From: a virus | Lineage: Duplodnaviria; Caudoviricetes | Virus record (IMG/VR): IMGVR_UViG_3300022591_000012 | Coordinates: 1-54,453 of that record | Length of the DNA stretch: 54,453 bases | Strand: one strand, 5' to 3' | Shown here: positions 26,250-53,014 of the stretch, in pieces | Layout of the letters: the number at the start of each line of letters is the position of its first letter | Numbering within the stretch: the stretch's first letter is position 1 | Translations under genes and position numbers: made by a program | Notes under the pieces: model-generated | The model's input: the letters and a program-made list of their open reading frames with translations, nothing else | Database searches by the model: none | Told to the model about the DNA's origin: nothing

Positions 26250-26292
26250 AGCCCTACCATTGCCGGAACGGTAATGCTAAACTAACCCCAAC

Positions 26293-26360
26293 GCCAACCG
26301 GCTGGCCGTCTGCGCCGGGCATCTCAACGCTACCACGGGCCACGCGCCCGGAGATGTCCG
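26293..26360 (+). promoter_or_regulatory. pseudoknot leader RNA, copy A
   Basis: GCCA-A-CCGGC-TGGC...GCCGG; CGGGCATCTC pairs with GAGATGTCCG over SD/ATG; TGCTAAACT -10 upstream. Confidence 0.7.
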
Positions 26361-26653
26361 TGCGAACTGCTTTGCAAGCCACCACAGCCCTTTCCGGCCT
26401 GATCGACACGTCCGGTGCCGCGATTCCATCAACGCGGCCCGCTGTCGATGTCCGCACCCTCCCGCTGATCGACCCCGATGCGCTGCCGCCGATGCCTGAG
26501 GGGTTCGAGGCGCGGTTGCACGGTGACGACGAGATCGTGGTGTGGTGGCCCGCGCAAGGGCTGCACGCCGCGGTGCCGCTGCTGGAACGGGAGACGGCGA
26601 TCCCCGAGGCGGTGGCGGCCATGATTTCGGCGGCGGGAGGCGCAATCGGATGA
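26354..26653 (+). CDS. hypothetical protein, paralog of next gene
   Basis: LPLIDP..LPP..GFEARL...VWWPAQGLHAA. Confidence 0.7.
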   Translation: MSVRTALQATTALSGLIDTSGAAIPSTRPAVDVRTLPLIDPDALPPMPEGFEARLHGDDEIVVWWPAQGLHAAVPLLERETAIPEAVAAMISAAGGAIG

Positions 26654-26961
26654 ACACCGACCCCGAGGCATGGCTCCATGCCTATCAGGCTCTCGATCGG
26701 CGCCATCGGCGCCATCGGGCGGAGACCTTCCTTGTCACCGACCTTCCCTTAGCCGATCCGGCATCGCTCCCGCCTCATCCGCCGCTGCCGCGTGGCATTG
26801 AGGCGCGGCTTCTGGAGTCCGTTGGCCCGACGATAATCCTCTGGTGGCCGTCGCAGGGCATGCACGCGGCATTTCCCGCAAAAGACTGCAACAAGTGCTA
26901 TGCGCCGGCCTTGGACCAGTTGATCCAGGCCGCATCCTTCGGCCGCTCGGGGCGCGCCTGA
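26650..26961 (+). CDS. hypothetical protein, paralog of previous gene
   Basis: LPLADP..LPP..GIEARL...LWWPSQGMHAA; SD GGAGG. Confidence 0.7.
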   Translation: MNTDPEAWLHAYQALDRRHRRHRAETFLVTDLPLADPASLPPHPPLPRGIEARLLESVGPTIILWWPSQGMHAAFPAKDCNKCYAPALDQLIQAASFGRSGRA

Positions 26962-26962
26962 G

Positions 26963-29353
26963 ATGGCTCAGGACCCGGACAAGCCGAAAGACGACGGCAA
27001 GGTACGCCTCCCGCGCACCGACAGCGCCATGAACAAGATCGCCCCGAAGATGACCGCGCCCGCCGACGACAAGGGCGGAAAGACCAAGGGCGCGAAAGCC
27101 AAGGAAGCCGAGCGCAAGGAAAAGCTCCTGCACCGCGCGCTGAAGCGGTTCGACAAGGCAGTTGAGGCCGAAGCCGCCAACCGCAAGGAGGGGCTGGACG
27201 ATAAGAAATTCGCCGCGGGAGCACCATATCAATGGCCCGCCGGCATCGTGGCGCAGCGGAACCTCGATCAGCGTCCGTGTTTGACAATCAACAGACTGCC
27301 TAATTTCATTCACCAGATCACAAACGACCAGAGGCAGAACCGCCCCGGCATCGTGATTTCCCCGACAGGAGACCGCGGCGACGTTGACGTTGCCAAGATG
27401 TACCGCGGCTTGATCCGGTTCATCGAGCGGGATTCCTGCGCTGACACAGCCTACGACACCGGCTTTGACAGTGCAGTCCGCATGGGATGGGGCTACTGGC
27501 GTATTCTCACGGAATACGAAAGCCCCGACAGTCGCAACATGAAGCTAGTAATCCGCCGCATCCGAAACACATTTACTGTCTACATGGACCCATCTGCGGA
27601 TGACCAGACCGCCGCCGACGCGAAGTGGGGATTTATTTCCACGATGATACCGCGCGACGAGTTCACTGACAAATACCCAGACGCGGACCCGATGCCGTTC
27701 GACAAGGCATCCATCGGCGAGCCGATGAAGAACTGGCTCAGCAAGGACGAAATCCGCATCGCCGAGTATTTCGAGATCGAATACAAGATGCGGACGCTTG
27801 TAGCCCTGGATAACGGGCACGAGGGATGGGAAGACGAGCTTGACGACGCCGTGCGCGAAGCCATCGCGGACGGCAGAATCGAAGTCATTGATGAGCGCGA
27901 AAGCCGCGTTCCAAAGGTAAAATGGTATAAAATCACCGCAAAAGACGTGCTGGAAGAAACAGATTGGATCGGCTCTACAATCCCGATTGTCCGGGTTGTC
28001 GGAGAAGAAGAGGATATCGAGGGCAAGGTCATTCTGTCGGGCATCGTGCGGCACGCCAAAGATTCGCAGCGGATGTACAATTATCATAAAACCGGCGAAA
28101 CCGAACTGGTCGCGCTTGCTCCCAAGGCGCCGTTCATCGGCGAGGAAGGTCAGTTCGAAGGGCACGAAGACGAATGGAGAACCGCCAACACGCGGTCCCT
28201 GCCGTATCTGAGCTACAAGGGGACCAGCGTCAACGGCACCCCGATACCGCCGCCGCAACGCCAGCCATTTGCCGGCATTCCAGCCGGCGTCGTCAACGCT
28301 GCTCAGGGCGCCGCTCAGGACATGCAGGCGACGACCGGCATCCGATTCGACGCCACCATGAACGAGCGGATGATAGACGAAAGCGGCAAGGCGATCCGCG
28401 AGTTGCGCCGCTCCGGCGACATGGGATCGTTCCACTTCATCGACAACCTGGCGCGGTCGTTGCGCCGCACGGGCGAAATCCTCGTTGAGGCCATCCCCCT
28501 GGTTTATGACACCGCGCGAACATTGACGATTTTGCGTGAGGACGACAAGGAAGAGCAGATCAGGATTGACCCGACGCTGCCGAAGCCGACCGGCGAAATG
28601 CGCAAGCCGGATGGAAAGCGGATCAAACTGTTCAACCCGAAATTCGGGAAATACGGCGTGACGGTGACGATCGGGCCTTCGTTCGCGACAAAACGGATCG
28701 AGGCGAGCGAAAACATGATCTCGTTCGCCAAGGCGCTGCCGCAGACGGGCGCGCTCATCGCTGATCTGATCGCCAAAAATCAAGACTGGCCCGGCGCGGA
28801 AGAGATCGCCACCCGCCTCGCCAAGACGCTGCCGCCGGGGTTGCTCCAGCCCGATATGAAGGACGTTCCGCCGCAGGTTCAGGCCATCCTTCAGCAACAG
28901 GACGCGCAGGTTAAGGAATTGGGCATGAAGCTCCAGGCCGCCATGCTGGAATTGCAGGACAAGCGGGCGGATCGGGCGGTCGATATTGACAAGGTGAACA
29001 AGGACTTTGAGGCAAAACTTCTGAAGGTGGTGGCCGACACCGAGGCAAAAATGGCCGCGGTGGAGGAAAAGGCCGCGGCGAACTTCAACACTCACATCGG
29101 CGCGCAAATTCAGGAACTCGGCGCCAACGTCGCGGGCCTGATCCAGCAATTGGAGCATCCGCCACAAACAGCCGGCGGCGGCGATGGACAGAAGCCGCCG
29201 GGCAATGAGACTGCCGCGCCGGCCGAGGCGCCGGAACCGAACGAACCGCCGCCCGTGGCGTTGCAGCATCTCAAGCAGGGGCGAGCGACGACCTTTGCGA
29301 ACGGCCAGAAATGGACGCTCGGGCCGGACGGCAAGCCGGCGAGGGTCGTGTAA
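26963..29353 (+). CDS. P22-like portal protein
   Basis: QWP, RPCLTINRL, NDQRQNRP, GWGYWRI, KDSQRMYNY, APKAPFIG, SGKAI, GPSFATKR, DWPGAEEIA. Confidence 0.95.
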   Translation: MAQDPDKPKDDGKVRLPRTDSAMNKIAPKMTAPADDKGGKTKGAKAKEAERKEKLLHRALKRFDKAVEAEAANRKEGLDDKKFAAGAPYQWPAGIVAQRNLDQRPCLTINRLPNFIHQITNDQRQNRPGIVISPTGDRGDVDVAKMYRGLIRFIERDSCADTAYDTGFDSAVRMGWGYWRILTEYESPDSRNMKLVIRRIRNTFTVYMDPSADDQTAADAKWGFISTMIPRDEFTDKYPDADPMPFDKASIGEPMKNWLSKDEIRIAEYFEIEYKMRTLVALDNGHEGWEDELDDAVREAIADGRIEVIDERESRVPKVKWYKITAKDVLEETDWIGSTIPIVRVVGEEEDIEGKVILSGIVRHAKDSQRMYNYHKTGETELVALAPKAPFIGEEGQFEGHEDEWRTANTRSLPYLSYKGTSVNGTPIPPPQRQPFAGIPAGVVNAAQGAAQDMQATTGIRFDATMNERMIDESGKAIRELRRSGDMGSFHFIDNLARSLRRTGEILVEAIPLVYDTARTLTILREDDKEEQIRIDPTLPKPTGEMRKPDGKRIKLFNPKFGKYGVTVTIGPSFATKRIEASENMISFAKALPQTGALIADLIAKNQDWPGAEEIATRLAKTLPPGLLQPDMKDVPPQVQAILQQQDAQVKELGMKLQAAMLELQDKRADRAVDIDKVNKDFEAKLLKVVADTEAKMAAVEEKAAANFNTHIGAQIQELGANVAGLIQQLEHPPQTAGGGDGQKPPGNETAAPAEAPEPNEPPPVALQHLKQGRATTFANGQKWTLGPDGKPARVV

Positions 29354-29601: not shown

Positions 29602-29655
29602 CAACGCATAACCATGCCGTCTAATTAACGGTCACAACCTGCGAGGCTACCGTTC

Positions 29656-30777
29656 ATGGCTGTGGCAACCCGAGGACCGGACATTCTGACCCGATCAGCG
29701 CCCCCGCTATCGGCGGTTTCCGATATGCCCCTGGCTGACATTGAGAAGCCGCCTGCATCGGCGTCAAACGACCCGGCAGACCATGCCAGGGGCGTTGCTG
29801 AGGAAATGTCGCCGCAAGCGCAGGCCGCCGCTCGTGCGGCCAAGGTGACGGACCCGGACGCCAAGCCGGTTGAAGCCAAGCCGGTCGAGGAGCCGATTGA
29901 CCTATCCGACCTCCCGGAGAACGCGCCGTACTGGTATAAACGCGAAGTAGGCAGGATGCGGCAGCAGACCCGCGCCGCGAAGGCCGGATTTGCCACCGAG
30001 GCCGAGGCCGCAAAGAAAGAGGCTGCCGACGCAAGCGCCGCAGCCGCGAAGGCCGCAGCCGACGCGAAGGCCGAAGCCGAAGCCGCCCGCGCCGAACTCG
30101 CCCGGATCAAGGCGGAGATCGAAGCCAAGGCCGCCGAAGCCCCGCCGGAGGCACCGGAGCCGCCGGCCGCCGATCCGCGTCCGGCACGCGACGCGTTCGA
30201 TGATCCCGACGCTTACGACTCCGCGCTGGAGGCGTGGTCCGAGCGCAAGGCCGCCGCGAAGATCGAGGCGGATCGCGTCGCCGCGGAAACCGCCGTCAAG
30301 GAGGCTGCGAAAGCCGCGGAAGCCGAAGCCGCGAAGGCCGCGCAAGATGCCGAAATTGCCAAGGTCGTCGCGACCTGGACCGAAAAGAGGACCGCGGCGA
30401 TTGAGCGGTATCCGGACTACGTTGAAGTGACCGAGGCCGATAAGCTGGTGATATCGGACGATATGGCAAAAACGATCGTGACTGCGCCGAACGGCACCGA
30501 TATTGCGTATTACCTGGGCAAGAATTTGGACGAATCCAAGCGCATCGCGGCGCTGCCAAGCCGGACGCAGCAGATTTTCGAGATCGGCGCGCTGTCCGCG
30601 AAACTGGCCGCAACCCCGGCCCGTGCGCCTCGCCCGAAGCCGCTGCAACCGATCGAGACCGGCAGCAACGCCGCCGATACGTCCGATCGGGAAGAAACGA
30701 TGGCGGAAGTCGAAGCTCGGGTTTCCGCGCGGATTGCCGCGCAGCGCAAGCCGTTCATTCAAGCGACTCGCCACTGA
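29656..30777 (+). CDS. scaffolding protein
   Basis: Ala/Glu coiled coil, PARDAFDD, YPDY, IAYYLGKN; position between portal and coat. Confidence 0.8.
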   Translation: MAVATRGPDILTRSAPPLSAVSDMPLADIEKPPASASNDPADHARGVAEEMSPQAQAAARAAKVTDPDAKPVEAKPVEEPIDLSDLPENAPYWYKREVGRMRQQTRAAKAGFATEAEAAKKEAADASAAAAKAAADAKAEAEAARAELARIKAEIEAKAAEAPPEAPEPPAADPRPARDAFDDPDAYDSALEAWSERKAAAKIEADRVAAETAVKEAAKAAEAEAAKAAQDAEIAKVVATWTEKRTAAIERYPDYVEVTEADKLVISDDMAKTIVTAPNGTDIAYYLGKNLDESKRIAALPSRTQQIFEIGALSAKLAATPARAPRPKPLQPIETGSNAADTSDREETMAEVEARVSARIAAQRKPFIQATRH

Positions 30778-30789
30778 CCGCCAGAGCGG

Positions 30790-30874
30790 CCCGACCGGAC
30801 GGGTAATTCCGGGATGACTACCGACTACCGACTACCACCGGCACGGCCGGGCACGCACCGAGGCGCATCTCGGG
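30790..30874 (+). promoter_or_regulatory. pseudoknot leader RNA, copy B
   Basis: CCCG-A-CCGGA-CGGG-TAAT-TCCGG; alternative CCGGGATG/CATCTCGG helix. Confidence 0.65.
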
Positions 30875-30945
30875 ACCGAAGGAACCAACCGATGACCGCA
30901 ACAACCCAATAGTCGCTCCGATTGCGGGGCGCACAGGAGCCTGAC

Positions 30946-32130
30946 ATGGCAACCAACGCCCTGCTTACCCCTTCGCTCATCACGAAGGAAACGCTCGCCA
31001 TTCTGAGCAACAACCTTGTCGCCGCCGGCAAGGTCAACAGACAGTTCGAAAACCAGTTCGTCAAGATCGGCACCACGCTGACCGTCCGCAAGCCGGTTCG
31101 CTTCAAGGTGACGCGCGGCCCCGCGCTGCAAATCCAGGACATCACCGAGCCGTCCACCTCAATCACGGTGTCTCAGCAGGCGCACGTCGATTGGCAGTTT
31201 TCGTGCCAGGAACTCACGCTGACCATCGAGGACTTTTCCGAACGGTATTGCAAGCCGGCGGCTGAGGAACTCGCGAACGACGTGGACTATACGGTCCTCG
31301 GCCTGTTCAGCCAGTTGTTCAACCAGACCGGCACGCCGGGCACCGCTCCGTCTGCGTTCGCTGACCTGGCCGATGTCGGCCAAAGGATGGACGAAGGCGC
31401 GGTGCCGCAGGAAAGCCGCGTGCTGGTGCTCTCCCCGAAATCGTATTGGGCAATGGCAAAGGGCCTGATCGGCTACTACGTTCAGAATGTTTCTGAACCC
31501 GCGTTCAAGGGCTTCCTGGCGAACATCGCCAACTTCGAAATATTCATGGACCAGAACGTCCAGGCGCAGACTGTCGGCAACTGGAGCGGAACGCCGGTCG
31601 TCAACGGCGCCGGCCAAACCGGCGGCGTTCTGGTGACGAACGGGTGGACCGCCTCCGTGTCCGGCCTGTTGGCCCTTGGCGACATCTTCACCATCACGGG
31701 CGTTTACGCGATCAACCCGAAGAACCGGCAGTCCACCGGCGCGCTGCAAAACTTCCTGGTGACTTCGGCGGTGACTTCGGATGCGGGCGGCAACGCTGCC
31801 ATCGGCATCTATCCGGCGATCACTACGAGCGGTGCTTATCAGACCGTTTCCGCAGCGCCCGCCAACGGCGCCTCGATCACGGTCAAGGGCGCGGCGAACA
31901 CCTCGTATTTCCAGAACGTGGCGTTCACGAAGGACTGCTTCGGCCTCGTGACGGTGCCGATGGAACTCCCGAACGGCGTGGACTTCGTGGCGCGGGAAAT
32001 GCACCGGAACATTTCGATGCGGATCGTGCGGGCGTTCGACATCTTCAACGATGTCACTCCGGCCCGTATCGACATTCTTTACGGCGTCGCCTGCTTCTAC
32101 CCGGAGTTGGGCGTCCGCGTAACGGCGTAA
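30946..32130 (+). CDS. major capsid protein (P22 coat/gp5 family)
   Basis: NALLTPSLITKETLAILSNNLV, KIGTTLTVRKP, MDQNV, GDIFTITGV, RIDILYG; SD AGGAG. Confidence 0.95.
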   Translation: MATNALLTPSLITKETLAILSNNLVAAGKVNRQFENQFVKIGTTLTVRKPVRFKVTRGPALQIQDITEPSTSITVSQQAHVDWQFSCQELTLTIEDFSERYCKPAAEELANDVDYTVLGLFSQLFNQTGTPGTAPSAFADLADVGQRMDEGAVPQESRVLVLSPKSYWAMAKGLIGYYVQNVSEPAFKGFLANIANFEIFMDQNVQAQTVGNWSGTPVVNGAGQTGGVLVTNGWTASVSGLLALGDIFTITGVYAINPKNRQSTGALQNFLVTSAVTSDAGGNAAIGIYPAITTSGAYQTVSAAPANGASITVKGAANTSYFQNVAFTKDCFGLVTVPMELPNGVDFVAREMHRNISMRIVRAFDIFNDVTPARIDILYGVACFYPELGVRVTA

Positions 32131-32134
32131 CCAC

Positions 32135-32169
32135 GGGGCGCGTCCCGGCCTTGACCGGCCGGGCGCCCT
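32135..32169 (+). terminator. GC-rich hairpin after coat gene
   Basis: CCCGGCC-TTGACC-GGCCGGG; no U-tract. Confidence 0.35.
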
Positions 32170-32194
32170 CAACATAGCGAGCAAAGAACGCAGC

Positions 32195-32503: not shown

Positions 32504-32504
32504 C

Positions 32505-33884: not shown

Positions 33885-33969
33885 CCTCTACCAACGTCCG
33901 GTGCCCTGTAGTAATATGGGGCACCGGCATTTGGGCCGGGCGGAACCGGCGCGGCCGGGTGGAGTGACC

Positions 33970-35597: not shown

Positions 35598-35631
35598 CAC
35601 CCGCCGCCTGACATGCTAGACTAGCGCCGAA

Positions 35632-35680
35632 GCGAACCGGCTCGCGAAGTTGCCGGGCATCTCGAATATCCGGATGTCCG
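35632..35680 (+). promoter_or_regulatory. pseudoknot leader RNA, copy C
   Basis: GCGA-A-CCGGC-TCGC...GCCGG; CGGGCATC/GATGTCCG; TGCTAGACT -10 upstream. Confidence 0.7.
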
Positions 35681-35683
35681 CAA

Positions 35684-36415
35684 GTGGCCGTAACCGCGCT
35701 TGATATCATCACCGATGCACTCGAATTGCTTGGCGTCTACGGGCCGGGCGATTCGATCTCCGCCGCCGATAGTTCCCGCGCGCTATCTGTGTTGGCGGAC
35801 ATGATGGACCTGTGGAGCAACGAAAGCCTTGCGTGCTTCGCCTGGGCCACGACGACGTTCACGCTCCAGGTCGGGAAGTCGCAATACACGATCGGGCCGG
35901 GCGGCGATATCAGTGCGACGCGGCCAATCAGGATATCCGACGCGCCGGGCGCAACCTATTTGCTGGACACCAACGGCAACCGCTATCTGATGGATGCGGT
36001 GGATCAGTTGGCGTGGAATATGCAGACGACGGCGGTCGCCGACTCAGATCTCCCCGACACCCTATTTTTCGACCCGCAATTTCCGTTTGGGATTATCAAC
36101 ATCTGGCCGACGCCGGCCATGTCCTACACCTGCTCGTTCCTCTCCTATCTGCCGCTGTCCGATCCGTCCGCGCTCTCATCGGCAATCAGCCTGCCGCCGG
36201 GCTACAAGCGGGCGATCACAACCAATCTTGCGGTGTGTTTGAAGCCGTACTTCACCAGCGCGCAACTCGATCCGGATGTGCGCGAGGAAGCGCGGGAGTC
36301 GAGGGGAATCATCAAGCGATCGAACATGAAGCCGCCGAAGGCCGCGTATGATCCGGAGATCATTGCGCGCGGGCAGTCGAGCTACAACATTTATTCTGAC
36401 CGCTATAGCAGGTAA
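35684..36415 (+). CDS. P22 gp4-like head-tail adaptor
   Basis: TALDIITDALELLGV..GD, MMDLWSNE, YTIGPGG, LPPGYKRAI..NLA. Confidence 0.8.
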   Translation: MAVTALDIITDALELLGVYGPGDSISAADSSRALSVLADMMDLWSNESLACFAWATTTFTLQVGKSQYTIGPGGDISATRPIRISDAPGATYLLDTNGNRYLMDAVDQLAWNMQTTAVADSDLPDTLFFDPQFPFGIINIWPTPAMSYTCSFLSYLPLSDPSALSSAISLPPGYKRAITTNLAVCLKPYFTSAQLDPDVREEARESRGIIKRSNMKPPKAAYDPEIIARGQSSYNIYSDRYSR

Positions 36416-41889: not shown

Positions 41890-42219
41890 ATGCCTGTGCA
41901 AATAATCCAGATGTTTGCGCCGACCGTGCTGACGACATCGGCGGCGACGCTGTTCACCGCATCCGGGGCGACGCTCAACCGCGGGCGAATCCGGTTCACC
42001 AACACGTCGGGATCGAACGTCACTGTAACGGCCTACGGGATACCGAACGGCGGCACGGCGGGGCCGGGCAACGAGTTCCTTGTCGCGCAGACGGTCCTGG
42101 CTGGTGCAAACCTTGATGTGGACGTGCCGGTTCTTGCGCCGGGCGGGTTTATCCAGGCGCTGGCGTCGGCGGGGACTTCGGTAACGGCGCATTCGCTTGA
42201 TGGCGTGCTATCCTCGTGA
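41890..42219 (+). CDS. small all-beta virion protein
   Basis: RFTNT...GTAG..N...VLAPGGFIQA. Confidence 0.65.
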   Translation: MPVQIIQMFAPTVLTTSAATLFTASGATLNRGRIRFTNTSGSNVTVTAYGIPNGGTAGPGNEFLVAQTVLAGANLDVDVPVLAPGGFIQALASAGTSVTAHSLDGVLSS

Positions 42220-42237
42220 TACATTAACGCCACAAAA

Positions 42238-42292
42238 CCATACCGGCATGGGGCTTTCCGGGCACCTCTGAGCGTTGTTGGAGTTGTCCGGT
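42238..42292 (+). promoter_or_regulatory. pseudoknot leader RNA, copy D
   Basis: CCAT-A-CCGGC-ATGG...TCCGG; CCGGGCACCTC/GAGTTGTCCGG over SD; TGATACATT -10 upstream. Confidence 0.7.
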
Positions 42293-43150
42293 ATGCCGTT
42301 TACATCCATCCTGGGTTCGGGGCTGCTTTCCGGCGCGGCTTCTATTTTCGGCGGCGTCATGGGCAGCAATGCCGCGAAGAAAGCGGCATCGACTGAGGCA
42401 AACGCCTACAACCAAGCGACCGGCACAGAACTCGGCATGTTCAACACCGCGCAAGCGGACATGCAGCCGTGGTTGGCGGGTGGACAGAACAGCCTTGCGG
42501 CGCTGCAAAAGGCCCTCGGCATCGGGCCGGGCGGAACCGGCGCGTCAAACCCGCTCCTTCAGATGCTCGGCATCGGGCCGAACGGCCAACCGACCGGCGC
42601 CGGCATCAATCCGGCAACTTTTCAGTCGTCGCCGGGGTATCAGTTCCAGCTTCAGCAGGGCTTGGATGCCATTACCAACTCGAACGCGGCTGGCGGCATC
42701 GGCGGCAACGCGCTGAAGCAGTTGCAGGGCTACGGCCAAGGGGTGGCCAATCAGGGCTGGCAGCAATACATGGGCAACGTCAACACCGGCTGGCAAGGGC
42801 TTCTGAGTTCCCTTATGGGACTGTCCGGGCAGGGCATGGGCGCGGCCAGCACGATCGGCGGCGACGCGCTCGCGACCGGGCAACTGATCGGCGGCAACCA
42901 GATCGGGGCGGGCAGCGCGACCGCGAGCGGCGTCCTGGGCAGCAACAACGCTATGGCCGGCGGACTGAATAGCGGCTTCAAAAGCCTGATGGGCGGCGGG
43001 ATGTCCGGCGGCGGCGGCGGCGGGTTGGCGTCGCTGCTTTCGGGTCTGTTCAGCGGCGGAAGCGGCGCCACGGGCAACGCGCTCGCCTATGGTGCCGCCA
43101 CCAGCCCCGAAGCGATGGGCGGCGGCGGATACTACGGCCCGGCGTTCTAG
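42293..43150 (+). CDS. DNA ejection protein, P22 gp7-like
   Basis: Gly-rich, AAKKAA..A, QPWLAGG, FQSSPGYQFQLQQG. Confidence 0.8.
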   Translation: MPFTSILGSGLLSGAASIFGGVMGSNAAKKAASTEANAYNQATGTELGMFNTAQADMQPWLAGGQNSLAALQKALGIGPGGTGASNPLLQMLGIGPNGQPTGAGINPATFQSSPGYQFQLQQGLDAITNSNAAGGIGGNALKQLQGYGQGVANQGWQQYMGNVNTGWQGLLSSLMGLSGQGMGAASTIGGDALATGQLIGGNQIGAGSATASGVLGSNNAMAGGLNSGFKSLMGGGMSGGGGGGLASLLSGLFSGGSGATGNALAYGAATSPEAMGGGGYYGPAF

Positions 43151-45157: not shown

Positions 45158-45159
45158 CG

Positions 45160-48100
45160 ATGCCCTTTGACCCGACTCAGCCGTTTACCGTCGTAACGCC
45201 GGTTTCTGGCTTTGATCCCTCCAAGCCGTTCACCGTGGTCACTCCCGCCGCCGCGCAATCTGCGCAACCCGCCACACCTCCCGGCTACACGCCCGCCGAA
45301 GTGCAAGCGTCTCGCTCTGTCCCGCCAAACCCCGACGTCATCGCTCCAGATATGCTAACCCGCATCTGGAACGCTGTAACCGGCGCGGCGGCGGGCGCAT
45401 GGAACGCCAGCGGCCAGCCGAACCCGGTAACGCAGGCGGCAAACGCCGCGGCAGACCGGGACCTCCCGACGCTGGCACCCGTCATCCACGGGATAAACTA
45501 TCTTGCGGACCAGTCCGGACGCCCGCTCGCCGCCGCCATCCAGGGCGCGCAGGCCGGTGTTGCGCAGACCGGCGCGGAACTCGGCGCACCTCAACTTGGC
45601 CGCGACCTCGCCGCGATGCCGGAAGCGTTTGCCGGGATGCCTGGCGCGTTGCGGACCCCGGAGCCGGTAGCGGGCCGACCCGCCGGACTTCGCATCGAGC
45701 CGACCATGCGAGGGCCGGAACCGGGCGGCACGCCTGTTGCTCCCGCCCCGACATCGCCGCCTCCCGCGCCTCCAACGCTGGCGTTGGCCGGGCCGGAACC
45801 GAAGCCTGCCGCCCCGGCGCCAACTCTTGCGCTGCCCGCTCCTGAGCCGCCAAAGCCAGCCCCGACAGCGCCCGCCGAGACGCCCGCCGGGGAAACTGTC
45901 AACCGCGTAACCTACTTCGATCAGGCTCAAGGCGAATACGCCAGCGGCATAGTCAAGGGCACGCGTCCGGACGGGACAATGGTGGTGGACCGCGGCGCCG
46001 GGCCGTATGTGTTCGTGCATCCCGGTTCGGTCGTCGGGGAGCGCGTGGCGCCCGCGCCCCGCCCGGTTGCGTCCGCCGCTCCGGGGCCGTCGCCGGAAGC
46101 CGGGGGTGGCGCGGCAACGGCAACCGCGACCAAGCCATACCGCTCTGCCACGCAAATTCAGCGCGAAGAAGGCGTTGGCTACAATCAAGCCGTCGCGATC
46201 CGTGACGCAGAAGTGGCGGAAGCCGAGGCGCGGGCCAAGGCGGAAGAAGCCGCAAAGCCCGATCCGGCGAAGGCGCACGGCGGCCCGTGGACCGAGGCTG
46301 GAAAGAACACGGACGGAGAGACGGTCTACGCGAATCCGGACGGGCGCCATGCGGTGTTTGTGGACGGGGTGCCCTGGGCCGAAGCCGCCGGGACTGATCC
46401 GGAGAAGCGGAAGCCGCGGTATCAGATTGTCGGGACCGGGCAGGGCGACGCGCCGGATAAACCCGCCCCGGCGACAGTCAAGCCGAATAAAACCCTGTCG
46501 CTGGATGGCGAATCTCCCGCCGATACCATAAAGCCGGGCGGCGCGAACCCGCTGGAACCGTTCTTCCCGCGCGTGCCAACTGCGGATAACCCGCTGACGG
46601 TGGCGGAGATCGAGCAGGCTCGCGTTGCTGCGCAAGCGCATGTCGCGGCCGAGGCGGACAAGGCGCGGAAAGCGCTGGATGTCCCGGCCGCAGTGCCGAC
46701 AGGGCCGGGTCCGAAAGTTTCAGCAAATAGCGACACTCCGAGGCAATCCGACGCGCCAACCGCGACTGCGCCCGGCCCGAAACTCGAACTCCCGCCCATT
46801 CCTCCCAAAGAAGCCGCCAGCCTCGCGACAGCCTACGAAGGGCATCCCGCCGTCGATGACGTGCGCCGGGCCGTGGAGGCTGGCACGCCTCCCGAGCAGA
46901 TCGCAGGGAAAGGAAATCCGTTCACGGCAACGGAAGTGCGGGCGCTGGCGGATCATCACGGGTGGAAGGCGAAGCCGGTAGACGCCCCGCCGCCCGCGGC
47001 AAGCATTATAGTCGATGGTCAGACATTCACTTCCGAGAGCTTGGACGCGCGGATAAAGGTGGGCACGAAACAACTGAAGGAGCTTCAGCGCGAAGCCTCG
47101 GCCGAGATGAATCCGGATCGGTGGCGGAAGATCGCCGCCGAGGTAGTGGCTCGTCAGCAGGAACTTGAGCGGCAGCGGGACGCGCTCTATGCACACCAGA
47201 ACCCGCAACCGGCAGGCGCTCCGCCAATCCGCCCCATGCAATCATGGGTCACTGACGCCGACCGCGCCAGATGGGAAGCAGAAAGGGCCGAACGCGACAG
47301 GCTTGACCCGCAGCCTGAAAATCCGCCGCTTCCAGTCGATGAACCGCCGGACTTTGGCGAAAAAAAACCCGTAGACGCCCCGCCGCCGCAGTCCGGCGGT
47401 TACGTCATGCTGGACCCGGCGCAAATCGCCGTCGATCCAGCCCGCTTCCAATACAAGGAAAGCGGCGAGGGTGGCGTTACCGGCGCTCTGCACGGCATCG
47501 ACACATGGGAGCCGGCGCTCGCCAACCCGATCACGGCATGGCAGGACAAGTCTGGCAAGTTGTGGGTGGTCAACGGCCACCAGCGCACCGACCTCGCCAA
47601 GCGGGCGCAAACTGCGGGACAGCAGGGCGTGCAGATGCCGGCGCGCGTGTTCCGCGAGGAAGACGGCTACACCCCGGAATACATGCGGGCGTTGGGCGCT
47701 TACCAGAACATCGCGGAAGGCTCGGGCACGGCGATTGATGCCGCCAAGGTCATGCGGGCCGCCGACGCAATCCCGGACACATTCAAGCTGCCAAGCCTGC
47801 CGCCGCGAGGGCAGATCGTGCGGGATGCCGCCGGGCTGACGAAATTGTCGGATGAAGCGTTCGGCGCGGCCGTCAACGGCGTAATTCTGCCCGCCTATGC
47901 CGCGCATGTCGGCAACCTGCTGTCCGATCCGACCGAGCAAATGGCGGCGATCGACATCCTGACGCGCGGCCATCCCGCGAACTCCGATCAAGCCCGCATG
48001 ATGGTGCTGGATGTCCGCGCCAGCGGCTTTCTGCGCGGCGAACAGACATCGCTCTTTGGCGATGAGGACTTTGCCCGGTCACTGGTCCCGGAACGCGCCC

Positions 48101-51100
48101 GCGTGCTGGATGGCGCGCTGCGGCAACTGCGCCGGGCCAAAACGGTGTTTCGCGCCGCGATTGAGGGCGAAGACACTTTAACTTCGGTCGGCAATAAGTT
48201 AGACCGTGAGGGCAACACGCAGGCCAGGACGGACAATGAGCGACTTATCGACACGCTCGAACGGGAATCCACCACGCGAGGACCAATCTCCGACGCGCTC
48301 ACAGCCGCAGCACGAGACCTTGCCGGGGGAAAGCCAATCGGATCGGCCGTCTCCCGGTTCATCGCCGCCGCCCGCGACCCTGGACCCGTACAACATGGCG
48401 CTGCTGACGCTGGCGATGGACATGCGGGCGAAAGCGAAGGCGGGGAAGTAGAGGGGCAGGACGGGCTGTTTGAGGGGCGTGGACTGCCATCCCTAATCCC
48501 TGCCGTCCGCGTCGCCGGAAAAACCTACACCGGCACAGACCACGCCAACGCATCCGGGAAAGTGCCACGCGAAGGCAACGAGGATGTCGCCTCAGTCTAT
48601 GGCTTCGTTGACGATCGCGGCAGGTTCCTCGATCGCACGCGGGCGTATGAGTATGCCGAGGCGCATGGGCTGCTGGCGCCGGGCGCGGAAGGACGGGGAC
48701 GGTCGGAACTGACTTCGGGGGATTTGCGGGGGAGCGAGGGTCGTAAGTTAGGTCCGATTCCGGTCAACGTTCGCGACATCGTTCCGGCAATGCGGATCAC
48801 GCCAAAAAATGGACGGTCTTACATCCTTCAGGGCAAACGTGGCGAACTGCACGATGATGTTGTCAGCCGCGCCTATGCAGATGACGAATCGCTTTACGAC
48901 AACAAACACAAGAGCGAACTCGGATTTGTCGATGAGACAACCGGGCGCTGGTATTCGCGCGATGACGCCGCACGGGCCGTTGGCGTCCATGAAGCGAGCG
49001 AATTGCTGGGCAACTTAGCCGAATCCCCCGGCCTCGACCAGACCGAGACCCCGGCGTTCCGTGCGTGGTTTGGCGGCAGTAAGGTGGTGGATGGTGCGGG
49101 TAGGCCGCTGGTGGTTTACCATGGTAGCCCGAAGCCGTATGCCGCTGAGGCGGCACAATTTGAAATTCCGCGCGTTCATGAGTCTGCGGCATTCTTTACC
49201 GATAGCCCATATTCCGGGAATGCCTATGCTTTTAGCTTGAGGTATCGCGGGTCAGACCGCGTGGCGCCGAACGTTATTCCTGTTTATTTAAGCATGAAGA
49301 ACCCGCTAGAGGTTGATTTTGGCGGAAAGGTAAAAGAACGGGGCTTTGATCCACTCATTTGGCACGCAGAAGAACATGGCTACGATGGGCTGATCATTCG
49401 GAATGTTATTGATAGCCCGCGCGGTGATGTAGATGCCGACCCGCAGACGGTATATGCGGCTTTCTTTCCCACCCAAATCAAATCCGCCATCGGCAACCGC
49501 GGAACCTTCGACCCCACGGACCCGAACATCCTGGCGGAGCAGTCCGGCATCCCTACCCCCCTTTACAGCGCCACTTCCCGCGCCGTCGATGCGCTGAAAC
49601 AGGCCAAGGGAACCGGCGAGCAAATGCTTGCCGCAATCAGCAAAACGCCCGGCGTGAAACCCGAAGAAATGAAGTGGCTTGGGCTGGACGACTGGTTGCG
49701 CGGTCGTGGGGTGGTCACGAAGGCTGAGATACAGGATTTCGTGCGGGAGCATGCGGTTGATGTCCGGGAGGTGATGAGAGGCGACCCGCACCCTCTGCCG
49801 CCGGCAGAATATCGCCGCTGGATTAATTTGTCTGATCGCGTAAATGGCGGCGAGACATTGACGGTCGCGGAAAACAAGGAGCTTGACGATTTAGAGTTTC
49901 GCGCGAGGGCGTTTCAGGGTCCGAAGACCACAAAGTATTCCGGATACACCCTTCCCGGCGGTGAAAACTACCGGGAATTGTTGCTGACGTTGCCGCCTAA
50001 GCCTCGATCGGTTGATTTTGGCGAAGTTCGCTCCCCTGGTCATGATTACGGCGCTACGGATCACATCGCGAACTGGCAAGGTCAGCACGAAGTCAAGGGC
50101 GTCAATGAATATCCGTTTACGATTAACGGGCAGGAAATGGGCACTATTACCCATTGGCCTTACACGTTCGACGGGAGAGGTAATCGCGCGCCGGAAAAAT
50201 ACGTCGTCAATTCTCCGTGGGTCCAAAATGCACAGATGGCCTCGATGGAGGCGGCAAAGAAGATTGTCAACGAGCGGTATAATGAGGCTGCGGCACCGGG
50301 GCAAAACGCTTACCATTCTTCTCATTGGGACGAACCCAACGTCCTAGCGCACGTCCGGTTTGATGAACGGGATGCGCCGGACGGCGCGCATGTATTGATG
50401 GTGCATGAGGTGCAGTCGGATTGGCATCAGGCGGGAAGGAGGTCCGGATACAAAGGTGACGTTGATGTCGATGCGCTTCGCCTCCGCGAACAGGAATTGA
50501 TCGGCAAGGGAGCGAGCGCCACACCTGAAGAAAAGCAAGAATGGGCGGATATCATGAACCGCATTCAAGCGTCCGGAAAGGCGGTTCCGGATGCCCCATT
50601 CAAAACTTCATGGTCCGCGCTCGCCATGCGCCGCATTATCAAGTATGCGGCGGATAACGGCTTCGATCGCGTGGCATGGTCGCCGGGGGCTGTTCATGCG
50701 GATCGGTATGATCTGAGCAAACAGATTAGTTCGCTTGATTACCAGAAAAACGCCAATGGCACATACCGGCTATCCTATCAGAAGGATCGCCGCGGCCACA
50801 TGATTGGGGACGCTATTCCTGCTGAAAAGTTGGAAGATTATGTCGGCAAGGATGTTGCGAAAAAAATAGTGGATGGCGGTGGCAAGCCGGTAAATTTTGC
50901 CGCCACCAACGACAGGCCGAACATCTATAATCGATTGTCCGGCCTCGATCTGAAAGTCGGCGGCGAAGGCATGACCGGCTTCTACGACAACATCCTCCCG
51001 AAAGAGACGAACAAGATCATCGGGAAGTTTGGCGCGAAGGTCGGGCGGAGTTTGATCGGGACCGGGGAAAGCGAACCTGGCCAACCGTGGCGACGTGACA

Positions 51101-52926
51101 CATCGACGCGGCTATTTGATGCTGCGGATCGCGCCGAAGCGGCTGGCGACAAAACTGCGATGCGGCAGTTGATCCATGCCGGCGAGCACATTGAAGACCC
51201 CGGATCAGATCATGTTGCGCTGTTTTACGGATTTAATGATGCCGCCAAGAAATACCTCACGGAAGCAGGCGGAGCGCCGGAACTTCCCGCGACGAAAGAG
51301 CCAGTCCACTCCTTCGACCTGACCCCGGAACTGCAACGCGCCGCCCAAACTGAGGGCATGGCGCTGTTCGCAGGCCGCCGCCTCCCCGCCCCACCCCGAG
51401 ACGCCGCCCCGGACCTGTTCGGCACCGCGCGCCCATCCGCACCGACACGCACCCCGGAACCGACGATCCGCGACGACCAGCGGCAGGCCGTCATGCCTGG
51501 GATGGAACCCTCCGCACGGCAGGCGCAGGCGGCTCGGGATGCGGCGGGGCCGCGTGGGGGGCAGAAGGCTGCGGATGAGGGGTTGTTTGGGCGGCCGGAG
51601 ACGGAGCAGCCGGAATTGCCGCCCGATTGGGCAACCAGTCACGCCAAGGACCTGAACGGCTCCGTGGCATGGCACCAAGGCGATATCGCGCTGATCCGTG
51701 GCCGCGCCGTCAACGGCAGGCAAATCTACGTCCCCGCCAAGGACGGCTTTGGCCGCGCCCGCGTGGACTTCGGCGGCTACACCGGAACCGCGTTCACCGT
51801 GCCGGAACTTCAGGCGTTGCGTGCCGCCCGCGAGCGCGTGGCTGCGGCTGATGAGGCGGCGGAGCGGCAGCGGCTTGCCGCCACGCCGCGACGCTCTGCC
51901 TTCGCCAATCACGGCCAGAACTTCACGGACATGACCGGCGAGGCGCCGACGCATGGGTATGAGGAAGCGGCGGATTGGGTCATGCGGATGGGCCGGGAAA
52001 CCGGGCACGAACACATCGCTGTGGTGGACAATCAGACGGGGGAGATCGTCCACGCGGGGACAAGCCACCAGGCTGCCAGCGTCGCCTTTCCGCACGCCAA
52101 TGTGCTGGGCGAAGACGGCCGATACACGATCCACCACAACCATCCAAGCGGCACGGCGCTGTCGCCGCAAGACATGACGATGCTGGTCAATAAGGGCGTC
52201 AGCAACGTCGTCAGCCATGGGCACAACGGCGTCACCACATGGGCCGCGCCGGGGCCGGTAATGCGGGGCGTCCGCACTGACAAACTTCCCGAATTGCTCA
52301 AGGCGTCTACCGGCATCCATACCGCGCATTCGATTGCGGCGAACATGGCGGATCAGATCGTGCGCCCGCTTATGAATGCGGGGGAACTAACCCGAGATCA
52401 CGCAAACGCGCTCTATACCGATGTCGCCAATCGCATTCTTCATGCGCAAGGCTTGATCGACTATCACTCAACGCTACCTTTGCCGGATGCGGTGCAAGCC
52501 GGCCTCGACAAGCAACTGAAGGCACTCGGAAATGCTGATAGACCCGCCCGGACCCTTCGCCCCGAAGAAAGAGTTGCAGGACTTCCTGGACCAACACAAG
52601 GACAACCCGGACCCCGGCGCCAAGTGGGCGGTTCGGGCGGTCAGGGGGCATCTGGCGAACTACGAGAAGGGGCCGACTCCGGTGAGCAGGGCGGTCTCCG
52701 AGAAACTAAGCCGGGAGAACCTGAATCGGATACTTCGGGGCGAGCCAACCGTTCACGGCGGCAAGTAACCCCCTACGCCCCCGCCATCCCCGGCGGCGTC
52801 AAGGACCCTGGCGGCGATGAAGGCCAACGCCAAGGCGTGAACGCCCTGGCCGAAGCGTCCCGCCGCGCGAAGGCCAATTCCACGAACGCGCTGGCGAGGC
52901 TGGCAGCCAAAACTAGCCCGCCGTAA
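45160..52926 (+). CDS. giant polyvalent ejection protein (ParB-like, ART-like, EVQSDW domain, JAB-like)
   Basis: VVNGHQR; FRAWFGGSKVVD..G.PLVVYHG...QIKSA.GN.GTF; HEVQSDWHQ; HHNHPSG..LS.QD. Confidence 0.85.
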   Translation: MPFDPTQPFTVVTPVSGFDPSKPFTVVTPAAAQSAQPATPPGYTPAEVQASRSVPPNPDVIAPDMLTRIWNAVTGAAAGAWNASGQPNPVTQAANAAADRDLPTLAPVIHGINYLADQSGRPLAAAIQGAQAGVAQTGAELGAPQLGRDLAAMPEAFAGMPGALRTPEPVAGRPAGLRIEPTMRGPEPGGTPVAPAPTSPPPAPPTLALAGPEPKPAAPAPTLALPAPEPPKPAPTAPAETPAGETVNRVTYFDQAQGEYASGIVKGTRPDGTMVVDRGAGPYVFVHPGSVVGERVAPAPRPVASAAPGPSPEAGGGAATATATKPYRSATQIQREEGVGYNQAVAIRDAEVAEAEARAKAEEAAKPDPAKAHGGPWTEAGKNTDGETVYANPDGRHAVFVDGVPWAEAAGTDPEKRKPRYQIVGTGQGDAPDKPAPATVKPNKTLSLDGESPADTIKPGGANPLEPFFPRVPTADNPLTVAEIEQARVAAQAHVAAEADKARKALDVPAAVPTGPGPKVSANSDTPRQSDAPTATAPGPKLELPPIPPKEAASLATAYEGHPAVDDVRRAVEAGTPPEQIAGKGNPFTATEVRALADHHGWKAKPVDAPPPAASIIVDGQTFTSESLDARIKVGTKQLKELQREASAEMNPDRWRKIAAEVVARQQELERQRDALYAHQNPQPAGAPPIRPMQSWVTDADRARWEAERAERDRLDPQPENPPLPVDEPPDFGEKKPVDAPPPQSGGYVMLDPAQIAVDPARFQYKESGEGGVTGALHGIDTWEPALANPITAWQDKSGKLWVVNGHQRTDLAKRAQTAGQQGVQMPARVFREEDGYTPEYMRALGAYQNIAEGSGTAIDAAKVMRAADAIPDTFKLPSLPPRGQIVRDAAGLTKLSDEAFGAAVNGVILPAYAAHVGNLLSDPTEQMAAIDILTRGHPANSDQARMMVLDVRASGFLRGEQTSLFGDEDFARSLVPERARVLDGALRQLRRAKTVFRAAIEGEDTLTSVGNKLDREGNTQARTDNERLIDTLERESTTRGPISDALTAAARDLAGGKPIGSAVSRFIAAARDPGPVQHGAADAGDGHAGESEGGEVEGQDGLFEGRGLPSLIPAVRVAGKTYTGTDHANASGKVPREGNEDVASVYGFVDDRGRFLDRTRAYEYAEAHGLLAPGAEGRGRSELTSGDLRGSEGRKLGPIPVNVRDIVPAMRITPKNGRSYILQGKRGELHDDVVSRAYADDESLYDNKHKSELGFVDETTGRWYSRDDAARAVGVHEASELLGNLAESPGLDQTETPAFRAWFGGSKVVDGAGRPLVVYHGSPKPYAAEAAQFEIPRVHESAAFFTDSPYSGNAYAFSLRYRGSDRVAPNVIPVYLSMKNPLEVDFGGKVKERGFDPLIWHAEEHGYDGLIIRNVIDSPRGDVDADPQTVYAAFFPTQIKSAIGNRGTFDPTDPNILAEQSGIPTPLYSATSRAVDALKQAKGTGEQMLAAISKTPGVKPEEMKWLGLDDWLRGRGVVTKAEIQDFVREHAVDVREVMRGDPHPLPPAEYRRWINLSDRVNGGETLTVAENKELDDLEFRARAFQGPKTTKYSGYTLPGGENYRELLLTLPPKPRSVDFGEVRSPGHDYGATDHIANWQGQHEVKGVNEYPFTINGQEMGTITHWPYTFDGRGNRAPEKYVVNSPWVQNAQMASMEAAKKIVNERYNEAAAPGQNAYHSSHWDEPNVLAHVRFDERDAPDGAHVLMVHEVQSDWHQAGRRSGYKGDVDVDALRLREQELIGKGASATPEEKQEWADIMNRIQASGKAVPDAPFKTSWSALAMRRIIKYAADNGFDRVAWSPGAVHADRYDLSKQISSLDYQKNANGTYRLSYQKDRRGHMIGDAIPAEKLEDYVGKDVAKKIVDGGGKPVNFAATNDRPNIYNRLSGLDLKVGGEGMTGFYDNILPKETNKIIGKFGAKVGRSLIGTGESEPGQPWRRDTSTRLFDAADRAEAAGDKTAMRQLIHAGEHIEDPGSDHVALFYGFNDAAKKYLTEAGGAPELPATKEPVHSFDLTPELQRAAQTEGMALFAGRRLPAPPRDAAPDLFGTARPSAPTRTPEPTIRDDQRQAVMPGMEPSARQAQAARDAAGPRGGQKAADEGLFGRPETEQPELPPDWATSHAKDLNGSVAWHQGDIALIRGRAVNGRQIYVPAKDGFGRARVDFGGYTGTAFTVPELQALRAARERVAAADEAAERQRLAATPRRSAFANHGQNFTDMTGEAPTHGYEEAADWVMRMGRETGHEHIAVVDNQTGEIVHAGTSHQAASVAFPHANVLGEDGRYTIHHNHPSGTALSPQDMTMLVNKGVSNVVSHGHNGVTTWAAPGPVMRGVRTDKLPELLKASTGIHTAHSIAANMADQIVRPLMNAGELTRDHANALYTDVANRILHAQGLIDYHSTLPLPDAVQAGLDKQLKALGNADRPARTLRPEERVAGLPGPTQGQPGPRRQVGGSGGQGASGELREGADSGEQGGLRETKPGEPESDTSGRANRSRRQVTPYAPAIPGGVKDPGGDEGQRQGVNALAEASRRAKANSTNALARLAAKTSPP
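52532..52768 (+). CDS. small protein nested in the +1 frame of the giant gene
   Basis: MLIDPPGPFAPKKELQDFLDQH, amphipathic helices, while the outer frame is low-complexity. Confidence 0.5.
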   Translation: MLIDPPGPFAPKKELQDFLDQHKDNPDPGAKWAVRAVRGHLANYEKGPTPVSRAVSEKLSRENLNRILRGEPTVHGGK

Positions 52927-52952
52927 CAAAACCCGCTATACTGCCGCCACAC

Positions 52953-53014
52953 CCGACCGGCCGGACCTTGCCGGGCATCGTCACCCGCCCCATCGGTGAA
53001 CCACCAGATGCCCG
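52953..53014 (+). promoter_or_regulatory. pseudoknot leader RNA, copy E
   Basis: CCG-A-CCGGC-CGG...GCCGG; CGGGCATC/GATGCCCG covering ATG; TATACT -10 upstream. Confidence 0.7.

Follow-up and report, generated by a model that had tools for sequence, protein, structure and literature searches.

The question raised by the viral genome record IMGVR_UViG_3300022591_000012 (Duplodnaviria; Caudoviricetes) is what role is played by a structured motif that recurs in front of its late genes. The whole record of 54,453 bp was analysed and is called the window below; its right half is a P22-like virion module. The original prediction had described five copies of one fold as a candidate translational switch. 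In four of them, the fold belongs to a longer leader cassette, in which a predicted promoter, a compact pseudoknot unit and a hairpin at the ribosome site follow one another. The favoured reading, held with somewhat less than even confidence, is that the cassette serves as a cis-acting translational operator on the sense RNA of the late (virion) operons.

The motif family is real, conserved and strand-specific. The pattern ACCGGM-N8-14-CCGGG gave five matches in the window, all on the plus strand, compared with a mean of 1.59 in shuffled sequences, of which 2/100 reached five. The longer pattern ACCGGC-N9-14-CCGGGCAYC was found four times in forward and zero times in reverse orientation, and its backwards control gave zero matches in both. 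Model R1, comprising nine units (seven from relatives, together with window copies B and E), returned the five copies as its top five window hits, all on the plus strand. The sequence TGNTANNNT occurs at 27 sites over both strands of the window, yet it stands just upstream of three of the four full copies.

The first helix, P1, begins at 26293 (copy A), 30790 (B), 35632 (C), 42238 (D) and 52953 (E), as had been predicted, and the pairings GCCA/TGGC, CCCG/CGGG, GCGA/TCGC, CCAT/ATGG and CCG/CGG were confirmed by reading the sequence. All five pseudoknot units held up, but copy B is not equivalent to the others, being a pseudoknot only, with neither the -10 box nor the arm complementary to the Shine-Dalgarno (SD) sequence. 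Full cassettes are located at 26275-26362 (A), 35614-35683 (C), 42217-42295 (D) and 52937-53014 (E). Their parts follow in the order of a TGnTAnnnT-type extended -10 box, the P1 hairpin of 3-4 bp, its loop ACCGGC, a downstream GCCGG-G stretch able to pair with this loop as an H-type pseudoknot (P2) and helix P3 (CGGGCAUCUC/GAGAUGUCCG), which contains the SD or the start codon. P1 and the (G/T)CCGG-G stretch, which supplies the 3' strand of P2, are 5-7 nt apart. A CAUCUC or CACCUC arm is joined directly to (G/T)CCGG-G in copies A, C, D and E, and its complement GAGAUGUCCG, or a variant of it, lies 9-27 nt further 3'. This 3' arm contains GGAG or ATG in all four full copies, and the P3 helices that had been listed for them were found with the SD or start codon inside.

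Copy B has the loop ACCGGA and the other four copies have ACCGGC; the partner of the loop is GCCGGG in A, C and E, and in B the partner TCCGGG supplies the compensatory A-T pair that had been claimed, but in D the same TCCGGG leaves a C/T mismatch and a P2 of 4 bp. The four -10-like boxes are present (TG-c-TAAACT in A, TG-c-TAGACT in C, TG-a-TACATT in D and cg-c-TATACT in E), three of them with TG, but P1 follows the end of the box after 9, 9, 12 and 10 nt, respectively, and not after 10-13 nt. The sigma-70 extended -10 sequence is thus complete at A, C and D, and CG replaces TG at E.

Structure in the sense RNA

The window and its relatives together contained 82 distinct A-CCGGN...N'CCGG-G units. 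P1 of at least three consecutive pairs was present in 31, where about 4/82 would be expected by chance (our own estimate from (6/16)^3). Across 30 pseudoknot units, the two inner variable pairs of P1 use CG, GC, AU and UA at one position and CG, GC and AU at the other, with zero unpaired cells. The P1 covariation score was 0.628, compared with 0.132 in shuffles, and was reached by 0/500 of these. P1 cells were paired in 76.6% of cases in these 30 units and in 30-37% in slid controls; choosing units by a P1 of at least 3 bp makes this paired fraction circular, but not the covariation. A second model combining P1 and P3, R2, chose 19 leaders, in which P1 is 100% paired, with three to four pair types at two positions. 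A split of promoter-pattern hits into 11 with and 10 without P1 agrees with this picture.

In P2, the CCGG core is invariant in the 30 pseudoknot units, and the fifth pair is C-G in 22, A-U in three, G-C in one and a C/U mismatch in four, all of the D type. The outer bases N and N' are complementary in 26/30 pseudoknot units versus 21/51 other units, and a subset of equal spacing showed the fifth-pair types CG (five), AU (three) and GC (one). Loop 1 is a single A (1 nt), loop 2 has 0 nt and loop 3 has 3-7 nt, with a conserved G behind the last strand. This geometry appears compatible with a classical H-type pseudoknot, a fold for which one covarying pair speaks; the single-A loop 1 is presumably the same in the gene 32 pseudoknot of phages T4 and RB69.

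P3 was paired to 92.6% in the 19 leaders versus 35-49% in slid positions. A conserved G-U wobble is kept in 12 of these leaders, which ties the helix to the sense RNA. When the P3 duplex was compared with 300 random windows of the same genome, at most 35/300 were as good in 13/16 leaders, and at most 13/300 in 8/16. The check for covariation in homologues that the original prediction had proposed therefore came out with strong covariation in P1 and covariation at the terminal pair only in P2; together with the wobble in P3, it bears out a structure of the sense-strand RNA. A first MAFFT alignment of the units split the loop. From 16 leaders aligned with MAFFT, RNAalifold returned just the invariant CCGG/CCGG pairs because the arms of P1 and P3 were misaligned.

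The expectation that the fold belongs to no known RNA family was borne out by a covariance-model search of the whole window against Rfam 15, which gave 0 matches at gathering thresholds. With E values up to 10, the region 26200-26420 gave one row (14.8 bits, threshold 39) and the region 30700-30960 gave three (10.9-18.7 bits, thresholds 35-45), and no plus-strand unit was overlapped in either. A description of the motif was not found in keyword searches of open-access literature text, supplements excluded.

Copies in the window and in related phages

All features of the copies given here are on the plus strand. In copy A, the extended -10-like box TGcTAAACT (26275..26283), one of the 27 TGNTANNNT sites, is a predicted late promoter with a predicted start. 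The pseudoknot module (26293..26319) consists of P1 (GCCA, 26293-96; TGGC, 26303-06), the loop ACCGGC (26297-26302), loop 3 (26307-13), the P2 3' strand GCCGG (26314-18) and the following G (26319). P3 (26316..26360) joins CGGGCATCTC (26316-25) with GAGATGTCCG (26351-60) around a small inner hairpin and contains GGAG (26350-53) and ATG (26354), with a GTG at 26360. It is part of the minimum free energy (MFE) fold, its duplex of -18.1 kcal/mol was matched by 2/300 random windows, and the leader scored 49.8 bits with R2.

Copy C has the box TGcTAGACT (35614..35622) with CTGACA 17 nt upstream, a promoter-scan result of 9/12 matches with TG. Its pseudoknot starts at 35632, with the loop at 35636-41 and GCCGGG at 35652-57. 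P3 joins CGGGCATC (35654-61) with GATGTCCG (35673-80), where the module ends, ahead of a predicted GTG start at 35684; the duplex of -15.3 kcal/mol was equalled by 35/300 random windows, and R2, whose seed includes this copy, gave 60.1 bits. The box TGaTACATT of copy D (42217..42225) is accompanied by a second box, TGCTATCCT, at 42206. The module (42238..42295) has its loop at 42242-47 and TCCGGG at 42257-62, and P3 joins CCGGGCACCTC (42258-68) with GAGTTGTCCGG (42281-91) with one C-U mismatch; GGAG at 42280-83 is the SD, and the ATG is at 42293. Here the duplex reached -17.3 kcal/mol, with 13/300 random windows as good, and R2 gave 61.7 bits (in the R2 seed). Copy E carries TATACT at 52937..52942, preceded by CGC in place of TG; its box CGCTATACT is also present at the orthologous copy of relative G001. 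The module (52953..53014) has the loop at 52956-61, GCCGGG at 52970-75 and a P3 of CGGGCATC (52972-79) with GATGCCCG (53007-14), inside which the predicted ATG start at 53008 is located. Its duplex of -16.8 kcal/mol was equalled by 16/300 random windows, and R2, from whose seed this copy was absent, gave 36.7 bits.

Copy B (30789..30813) lies between the scaffold and coat genes. Its P1 is (G)CCCG/CGGG(T), in which a fifth pair, G-T, is possible, and its loop (30794-99) is followed by the P2 3' strand TCCGG (30808-12) and G. The unit, a member of the R1 seed, scored 37.1 bits with R1, and orthologous copies with the A-T pair are present in relatives G001 and L130. Further units lack P1 and consist of ACCGGC, 3-6 nt and GCCGGG, so that the same two strands form a plain hairpin. 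Those predicted at 30837, 33923 and 33945 were confirmed and a fourth was added at 33861. The one in the coat leader (30837..30851) is ACCGGC-acg-GCCGGG, a plain CCGGC/GCCGG hairpin with a weak R1 match of 10.7 bits and an orthologous unit at position 8071 of G001. The other three (33861-78, 33923-40 and 33945-59) gave a weak R1 match of 13.1 bits at 33934-67, and the last of them ends 1 nt 5' of the SD GGAG of the gene starting with ATG at 33970. By our own reading of the late-region gaps, units fill 6/8 intergenic gaps of at least 40 nt between 26.2 and 53.0 kb.

The coat leader holds other features as well. Between the copy B pseudoknot and the P1-less hairpin, the C-rich, G-poor heptamer CTACCGA is repeated three times in tandem (30817-30836), and other C-rich tracts stand at the same place in G001, G002 and G004; the tract could serve to load Rho or, being CA-rich, to enhance translation. 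Further downstream (window 30892-30948), an upstream open reading frame (ORF) of six codons, ATG ACC GCA ACA ACC CAA TAG (30892-30912), with its own SD AAGGA, is followed by the hairpin CGCTCCG-attg-CGGGGCG, the coat SD AGGAG and the coat ATG at 30946. The coat leaders of G001, G002 and G004 keep an ORF of 4-5 codons (stop excluded) and then the same GTCGCTCCG...GCGGGGCGC hairpin. This arrangement looks like control of coat translation coupled to the upstream ORF.

Relatives were sought in loci around portal homologues, 79 from viral contigs, five from genome contigs and 70 from metagenome contigs. The cassette was found only in the closest group, whose portals are 64-76% identical (G001, G002, G003/L127, G004 with L128 and L132, G005/L130 and L339), with 3-5 full cassettes per whole record. 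They are located at 3747, 11344, 19213, 32599 and 37680 in G001, at 7037, 19689, 35354 and 76129 in G002, and at 84936, 60563 and 19603 on the minus strand in G004. Orthologous leaders in G001, G002, G004, L127, L130 and L339 keep the cassette and have P1 swapped for CCG/CGG, CCA/TGG, CCGC/GCGG, GCGC/GCGC or CCAC/GTGG; the first four of these, together with GCCA/TGGC, are the P1 variants of the A-type leader. A TGCTAnAC(T)-like box stands at most of these orthologous leaders. The records G001, G002 and G004 also carry pseudoknots without a promoter in the scaffold and coat leaders, frequently in tandem, and the arrays in front of the coat gene comprise 2-5 units. The last unit of the array ends 0-3 nt before the SD in the coat leaders of G002, G004, L130 and L131, and units directly abut SDs at window position 33945 (1 nt), G002 80663 (2 nt) and G004 8342 (2 nt).

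Outside this group, G007 has coat-leader units only, with the loop AACCGGA, and the R2 search of G006 and G007 gave no match. Single pseudoknot-like units stand 3' of the portal gene in the more distant loci L334, L336, L378 and L406. Pattern scans of viral contigs with the bare motif gave, among the matches listed, mostly single chance ones and were not used; 238 strand-scans of such loci showed one unit in 110 and three or more in 11, again among the matches listed. When the promoter box was included in the pattern, 21 loci were found. P1 of at least 3 bp was present in 11 of them, all from G001-, G002- or G005-like genomes, and the remaining ten had a P1 of at most 2 bp and were chance-like, so that the family was not widened. 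A de novo search of the 79 portal-related loci for pseudoknots with another P2 sequence revealed no second recurrent type. On the host side, three of 151 genomes of the order of a portal-bearing Betaproteobacteria metagenome-assembled genome (MAG) gave one hit each, and all three hits were rejected, as the proper 3' half was missing and they were sited in coding-like sequence. Whole-sequence searches of two MAGs yielded no hit at E <=0.01. On the sequences compared, the motif family is absent from Rfam and restricted to one small clade of P22-like phages, all uncultivated.

Within the virion module of the window, the portal (26963-29353), scaffold (29656-30777) and coat (30946-32130) genes are followed by an adaptor-like gene (35684-36415), an Hc3-like gene (36415-38703), an ejection protein (42293-43150), a polyvalent protein of 2588 aa (45160-52926) and a tail-lysozyme protein starting at 53008. 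The portal is just 38-44% identical to those of the nearest named phages. Portals of 54-60% identity are present on Betaproteobacteria MAG contigs, a weak hint that the host may belong to this class. The closest relatives in the virion module are larger (G004, 88 kb with direct terminal repeats; G002, 86 kb) than the 54 kb of the window. Beyond the module, G002 and G004 share almost nothing with the window, except for a DnaB-like helicase in G002 and G006, a strong modular mosaicism surrounding a conserved late module.

The record is classed as linear, with a CheckV completeness estimate of 100%. ORFs are cut at both of its ends, an SNF2/helicase-like one at the 5' end (window 1-1388) and the lysozyme-domain gene at the 3' end (52996-54453), where the operon led by copy E is cut short; despite this estimate, the record thus probably falls short of completeness to the base. 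Among sequencing runs, the listing shows four DNA runs of one study, possibly the source, and one further run with a small share, but no RNA run. The 2588-aa protein contains an ART-PolyVal ADP-ribosyltransferase domain (residues 1311-1450, E 2e-16), an unusual cargo for a P22-like ejection module; its PHROG hits are giant polyvalent or ejected proteins. Immediately 3' of the coat stop codon stands GGGGCGCGTCCCGGCC-ttgacc-GGCCGGGCGCCC (32137-32173), a strong GC hairpin lacking a U tract, which may stabilise the 3' end or act as an atypical terminator. ARAGORN reported a 91-nt tRNA-Ile with the unusual anticodon AAT at 7421-7511, possibly a false call or an odd phage tRNA.

Proposed translational control and its rivals

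In the favoured reading as a translational operator, each full cassette would start from the predicted extended -10 promoter, and the compact H-type pseudoknot would begin about 2-6 nt past the expected start site. Its design would be a sequence-free P1 of 3-5 bp, the single-A loop 1, P2 as CCGGC/GCCGG, a loop 3 of 3-7 nt and the conserved G. Right behind it, the anti-SD-like CAUCUC/CACCUC arm would pair with the first gene's SD or start codon, and the resulting hairpin P3 would be the repressing structure in the control of translation initiation. The pseudoknot may act as a separable handle beside the ribosome site; it has 2-4 nt in common with the base of P3, and its formation would weaken P3. 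It is likely to be the binding site of a trans-acting factor or else the first fold to form during transcription, and would set the ease with which ribosomes open P3. This handle would recur, P1 included or lacking, 0-3 nt upstream of coat-leader SDs and ahead of the gene that starts at 33970. The complementarity of P3 covers the initiation region, and a role in translation initiation is favoured because the units lie near ribosome sites, either in sequence or via P3.

Competition between the two folds was part of the original prediction, and it stands in so far as the 5' arm of P3 takes 2-4 nt of the P2 3' strand in 16/16 leaders, so that full P3 and P2 are mutually exclusive. The further step, in which formation of the pseudoknot frees the ribosome site, did not follow from folding of the 16 leaders with the P2 strands blocked and P1 forced, which mimics the pseudoknot. 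In most leaders, the constrained MFE fold retains a shortened P3; its core measures 5 to 7 bp in copies A, C, D and E and includes the SD in A and D. Since this core persists, the pseudoknot alone does not free the ribosome site; in these models, it would weaken the base of P3 without releasing the site by itself. A switch in which a stabilised pseudoknot frees the ribosome site, as one version of the translational operator, is graded as unlikely.

Several observations weigh against translational control as a whole. In the blocked folds, the P3 3' arm opened only in part: its mean unpaired probability went from 0.03-0.31 to 0.07-0.48 over the 16 leaders and dropped in one of them. The nested ensemble without a pseudoknot lay 8-18 kcal/mol below the P2-blocked state in nearest-neighbour folding, a rough comparison, and a P2 helix of about -12 kcal/mol minus the pseudoknot penalty might not repay this difference. 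P2 is invariant in the 19 leaders and CCGG is self-complementary, so its pairing depends on one covarying position, which is mismatched (C/U) in all four D-type copies. True covariation in P3 is scant, with double changes in three pairs and four cells in total in an alignment fitted to the model, and P3 is no better than random windows in 3/16 leaders. Pseudoknots also exist without P3, as in copy B and in the tandem arrays of the relatives' coat and scaffold leaders. Their role is therefore not solely competition with P3, and such arrays suit a role in stability or transcription equally well. No candidate RNA-binding regulator and no regulator gene specific to the pseudoknot carriers emerged from the ORF comparisons and family scans given below. 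The transcription start sites, the pseudoknot fold, the effect on translation with its sign and any factor are predictions drawn from the sequence.

The best-surviving alternative, possible but clearly less probable, is an mRNA stabiliser or processing barrier. Pseudoknots and P1-less GC hairpins at the 5' ends of primary or processed transcripts would block decay that depends on the 5' end (RppH and RNase E scanning, RNase J), leaving long-lived segments for virion proteins in high demand, and P3 would be an ordinary ribosome-site hairpin next to them. The tight spacing of the box would suit such a barrier: with 9-12 nt in the window and a hexamer-to-loop distance of 10-17 nt in the 11/16 leaders for which a TAnnnT box was detected, P1 would begin about 2-6 nt from the 5' end. 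The promoter-less tandem arrays of 2-5 units precede the gene of the most abundant product, the coat protein, and copy B has no P3. The box distance and the coat arrays suit a stabiliser nearly as well as they suit a role in translation. Equally, the A/U-rich box, set in GC-rich RNA ahead of a stable structure, could be where a ribonuclease cuts, but it agrees with an extended -10 element at the positions of strongest conservation (TG, T-12, A-11 and T-7) and not with a loose cleavage preference. Stabilisation also leaves unexplained why P3 invades P2 in 16/16 leaders and why units abut SDs so closely.

A processive antitermination site, at which the nascent pseudoknot, with or without a protein, modifies RNA polymerase and the coat arrays reload the modification, is improbable. 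The units directly follow each predicted promoter and recur in long intergenic leaders, a placement like that of nut and put sites. The CTACCGA repeat (30817-36) and the C-rich, G-poor tracts of the relatives may be Rho-loading sites in need of suppression, and a put-like element requires no phage regulator, in keeping with the lack of a shared one among the ORFs compared. However, boxA-like matches numbered 12 in the window versus 10.9 expected, and, unlike at lambda nut, none is near any leader unit. Intrinsic terminators were at shuffle level, with only three overlapping plus-strand candidates in 25-54 kb. In the present units, it is the helix that is conserved while the sequence inside it is free, unlike boxB with its conserved loop, and antitermination does not explain why P3 covers the ribosome site.

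A DNA-level element, either an operator at which a late repressor or activator binds ACCGGC...GCCGGG or a recombination cassette of promoter plus stem-loop for module exchange, is the least probable of the alternatives and very unlikely: the core is an imperfect inverted repeat, cassettes stand at operon borders of a mosaic genome whose virion module alone is common to the relatives, the gene 32505-33884 adjoining the 33.9-kb units is replaced in G001, G002 and G004, and promoter/terminator stem-loop cassettes that mediate shuffling have been described (PMC4122927, in the portion available), but the distance between the halves varies from 3 to 11 nt, which is hard to square with a dimeric DNA-binding protein, P1 covaries without a conserved sequence, the G-U pairs of P3 would be C-A mismatches on the other strand, and every copy is oriented with transcription.

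Known systems, candidate factors and implications

The cassette lacks a defining feature of each system with which it was compared (Com/mom, gene 32, SAS/ESAS and PeSL) and is therefore a member of none of them; the statements on these systems refer to the passages of the cited papers that were at hand. By analogy, the closest layout is that of Com/mom in phage Mu. The initiation region of mom is locked in a hairpin, the translation inhibition structure, with a small structured RNA site immediately 5' of it, whose occupancy is proposed to melt the hairpin (PMC6483171). A hairpin-sequestered initiation region with a candidate site directly 5' is common to both, and here the pseudoknot ends inside the 5' arm of P3. 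Mu has one target mRNA, whereas 4-5 operons per genome would be targets here. Instead of a pseudoknot, Mu has a simple hairpin bearing a sequence motif, and an activating direction would carry over to the present cassette only by analogy. The ORF scans, which did not include every small ORF, turned up no Com-like zinc-finger protein.

In T4 and RB69, a pseudoknot of about 28 nt at the 5' end of the gene 32 leader is the protein recognition site that controls a downstream ribosome site (PMC535899), and the predicted 5' leader pseudoknot upstream of a ribosome site is what the present cassette would have in common with it. As far as this source describes it, the T4 pseudoknot is followed by unstructured, cooperatively coated UUAAA repeats, whereas a GC-rich P3 hairpin follows here, and the T4 control is autogenous and concerns a single gene; no gp32 or SSB gene was recognised in this phage by the family scans. 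The SAS/ESAS repeats of Cluster K mycobacteriophages, for which a role in translation initiation is suspected and the function is given as undetermined (PMC3203893), are likewise a family just 5' of the translation starts of a subset of genes, in a single orientation. They differ in sequence and host, SAS includes the SD itself, and the arms of ESAS are 17 bp. The passages at hand describe neither a pseudoknot nor a promoter association, and place SAS in the non-structural half of the genome, whereas the present units are in the virion half. PeSL of T4-type phages are composite units of promoter plus stem-loop present as many intergenic repeats (PMC4122927, PMC2839356); they join an early promoter to a terminator and have been considered as points of recombination (PMC4122927). 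As opposed to PeSL as described in those passages, the present cassettes precede late genes, conceal a ribosome site in their stem-loop and include a putative pseudoknot with covariation. The preQ1-I and guanidine-III riboswitches are H-type pseudoknots of similar size near the SD, with a fold that competes with ribosome access. They are set apart by the missing Rfam match and by the many copies per genome before virion genes, unlike the pattern of a metabolite sensor.

A trans-acting factor was sought among the proteins of the phages. In a tblastn comparison of 494 ORFs, only virion-module genes were common to the window and the other pseudoknot-bearing phages. Pfam and PHROGs searches of about 90 ORF translations, not every small ORF included, revealed no antiterminator, sigma factor, Com, RegA or SSB. 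A CxxC...CxxC search found just the 82-aa ORF 10323-10571 and an off-frame ORF, neither of which is common to the pseudoknot-bearing relatives. The factor, if there is one, may be a virion protein, a host protein or the product of the small conserved ORF 23226-23483 or 24803-25027. These two ORFs (85 and 74 aa) lie just upstream of the first late leader, and nearly every relative keeps them, whether or not it carries the leader pseudoknot; no family was found for either in Pfam/PHROGs and Atlas. The 85-aa frame has a Cys-rich N-terminus (C-x3-C-x6-C-x2-C), and since its Atlas record begins at residue 29, this part may be untranslated.

One specific version of the operator, also improbable, is assembly-coupled feedback, in which the A-CCGGC/GCCGG-G units would be the target of a virion protein in its unassembled state, with the scaffolding protein as the most plausible candidate. 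Binding before every morphogenesis operon and in the coat leader would tune translation of the virion module to assembly. The N-terminus of the P22 scaffolding protein is implicated in translational autoregulation, according to the part of the preprint at hand (bioRxiv 10.1101/2022.12.13.520362). This autoregulation, taken together with the finding that only virion genes are common to the carriers, is what makes the feedback reading possible. To our knowledge, the operator of scaffold translational control in P22-like phages is still undefined after decades; if true, feedback would provide a defined RNA target for a control long known in these phages.

The reach of the finding is that of a small, uncultivated clade in which the cassette is known from sequence alone. 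Its design of pseudoknot plus hairpin is unlisted in Rfam. If the reading as a translational operator is true, it would be a multi-operon addition to the few known phage translational operators, such as gene 32, RegA and Com/mom, and, at about 60 nt, a compact building block for synthetic control. This phage group would then tag all its virion operons with one structured RNA signal and control them post-transcriptionally, which may bear on the balance of scaffold, coat and portal synthesis in P22-like phages.

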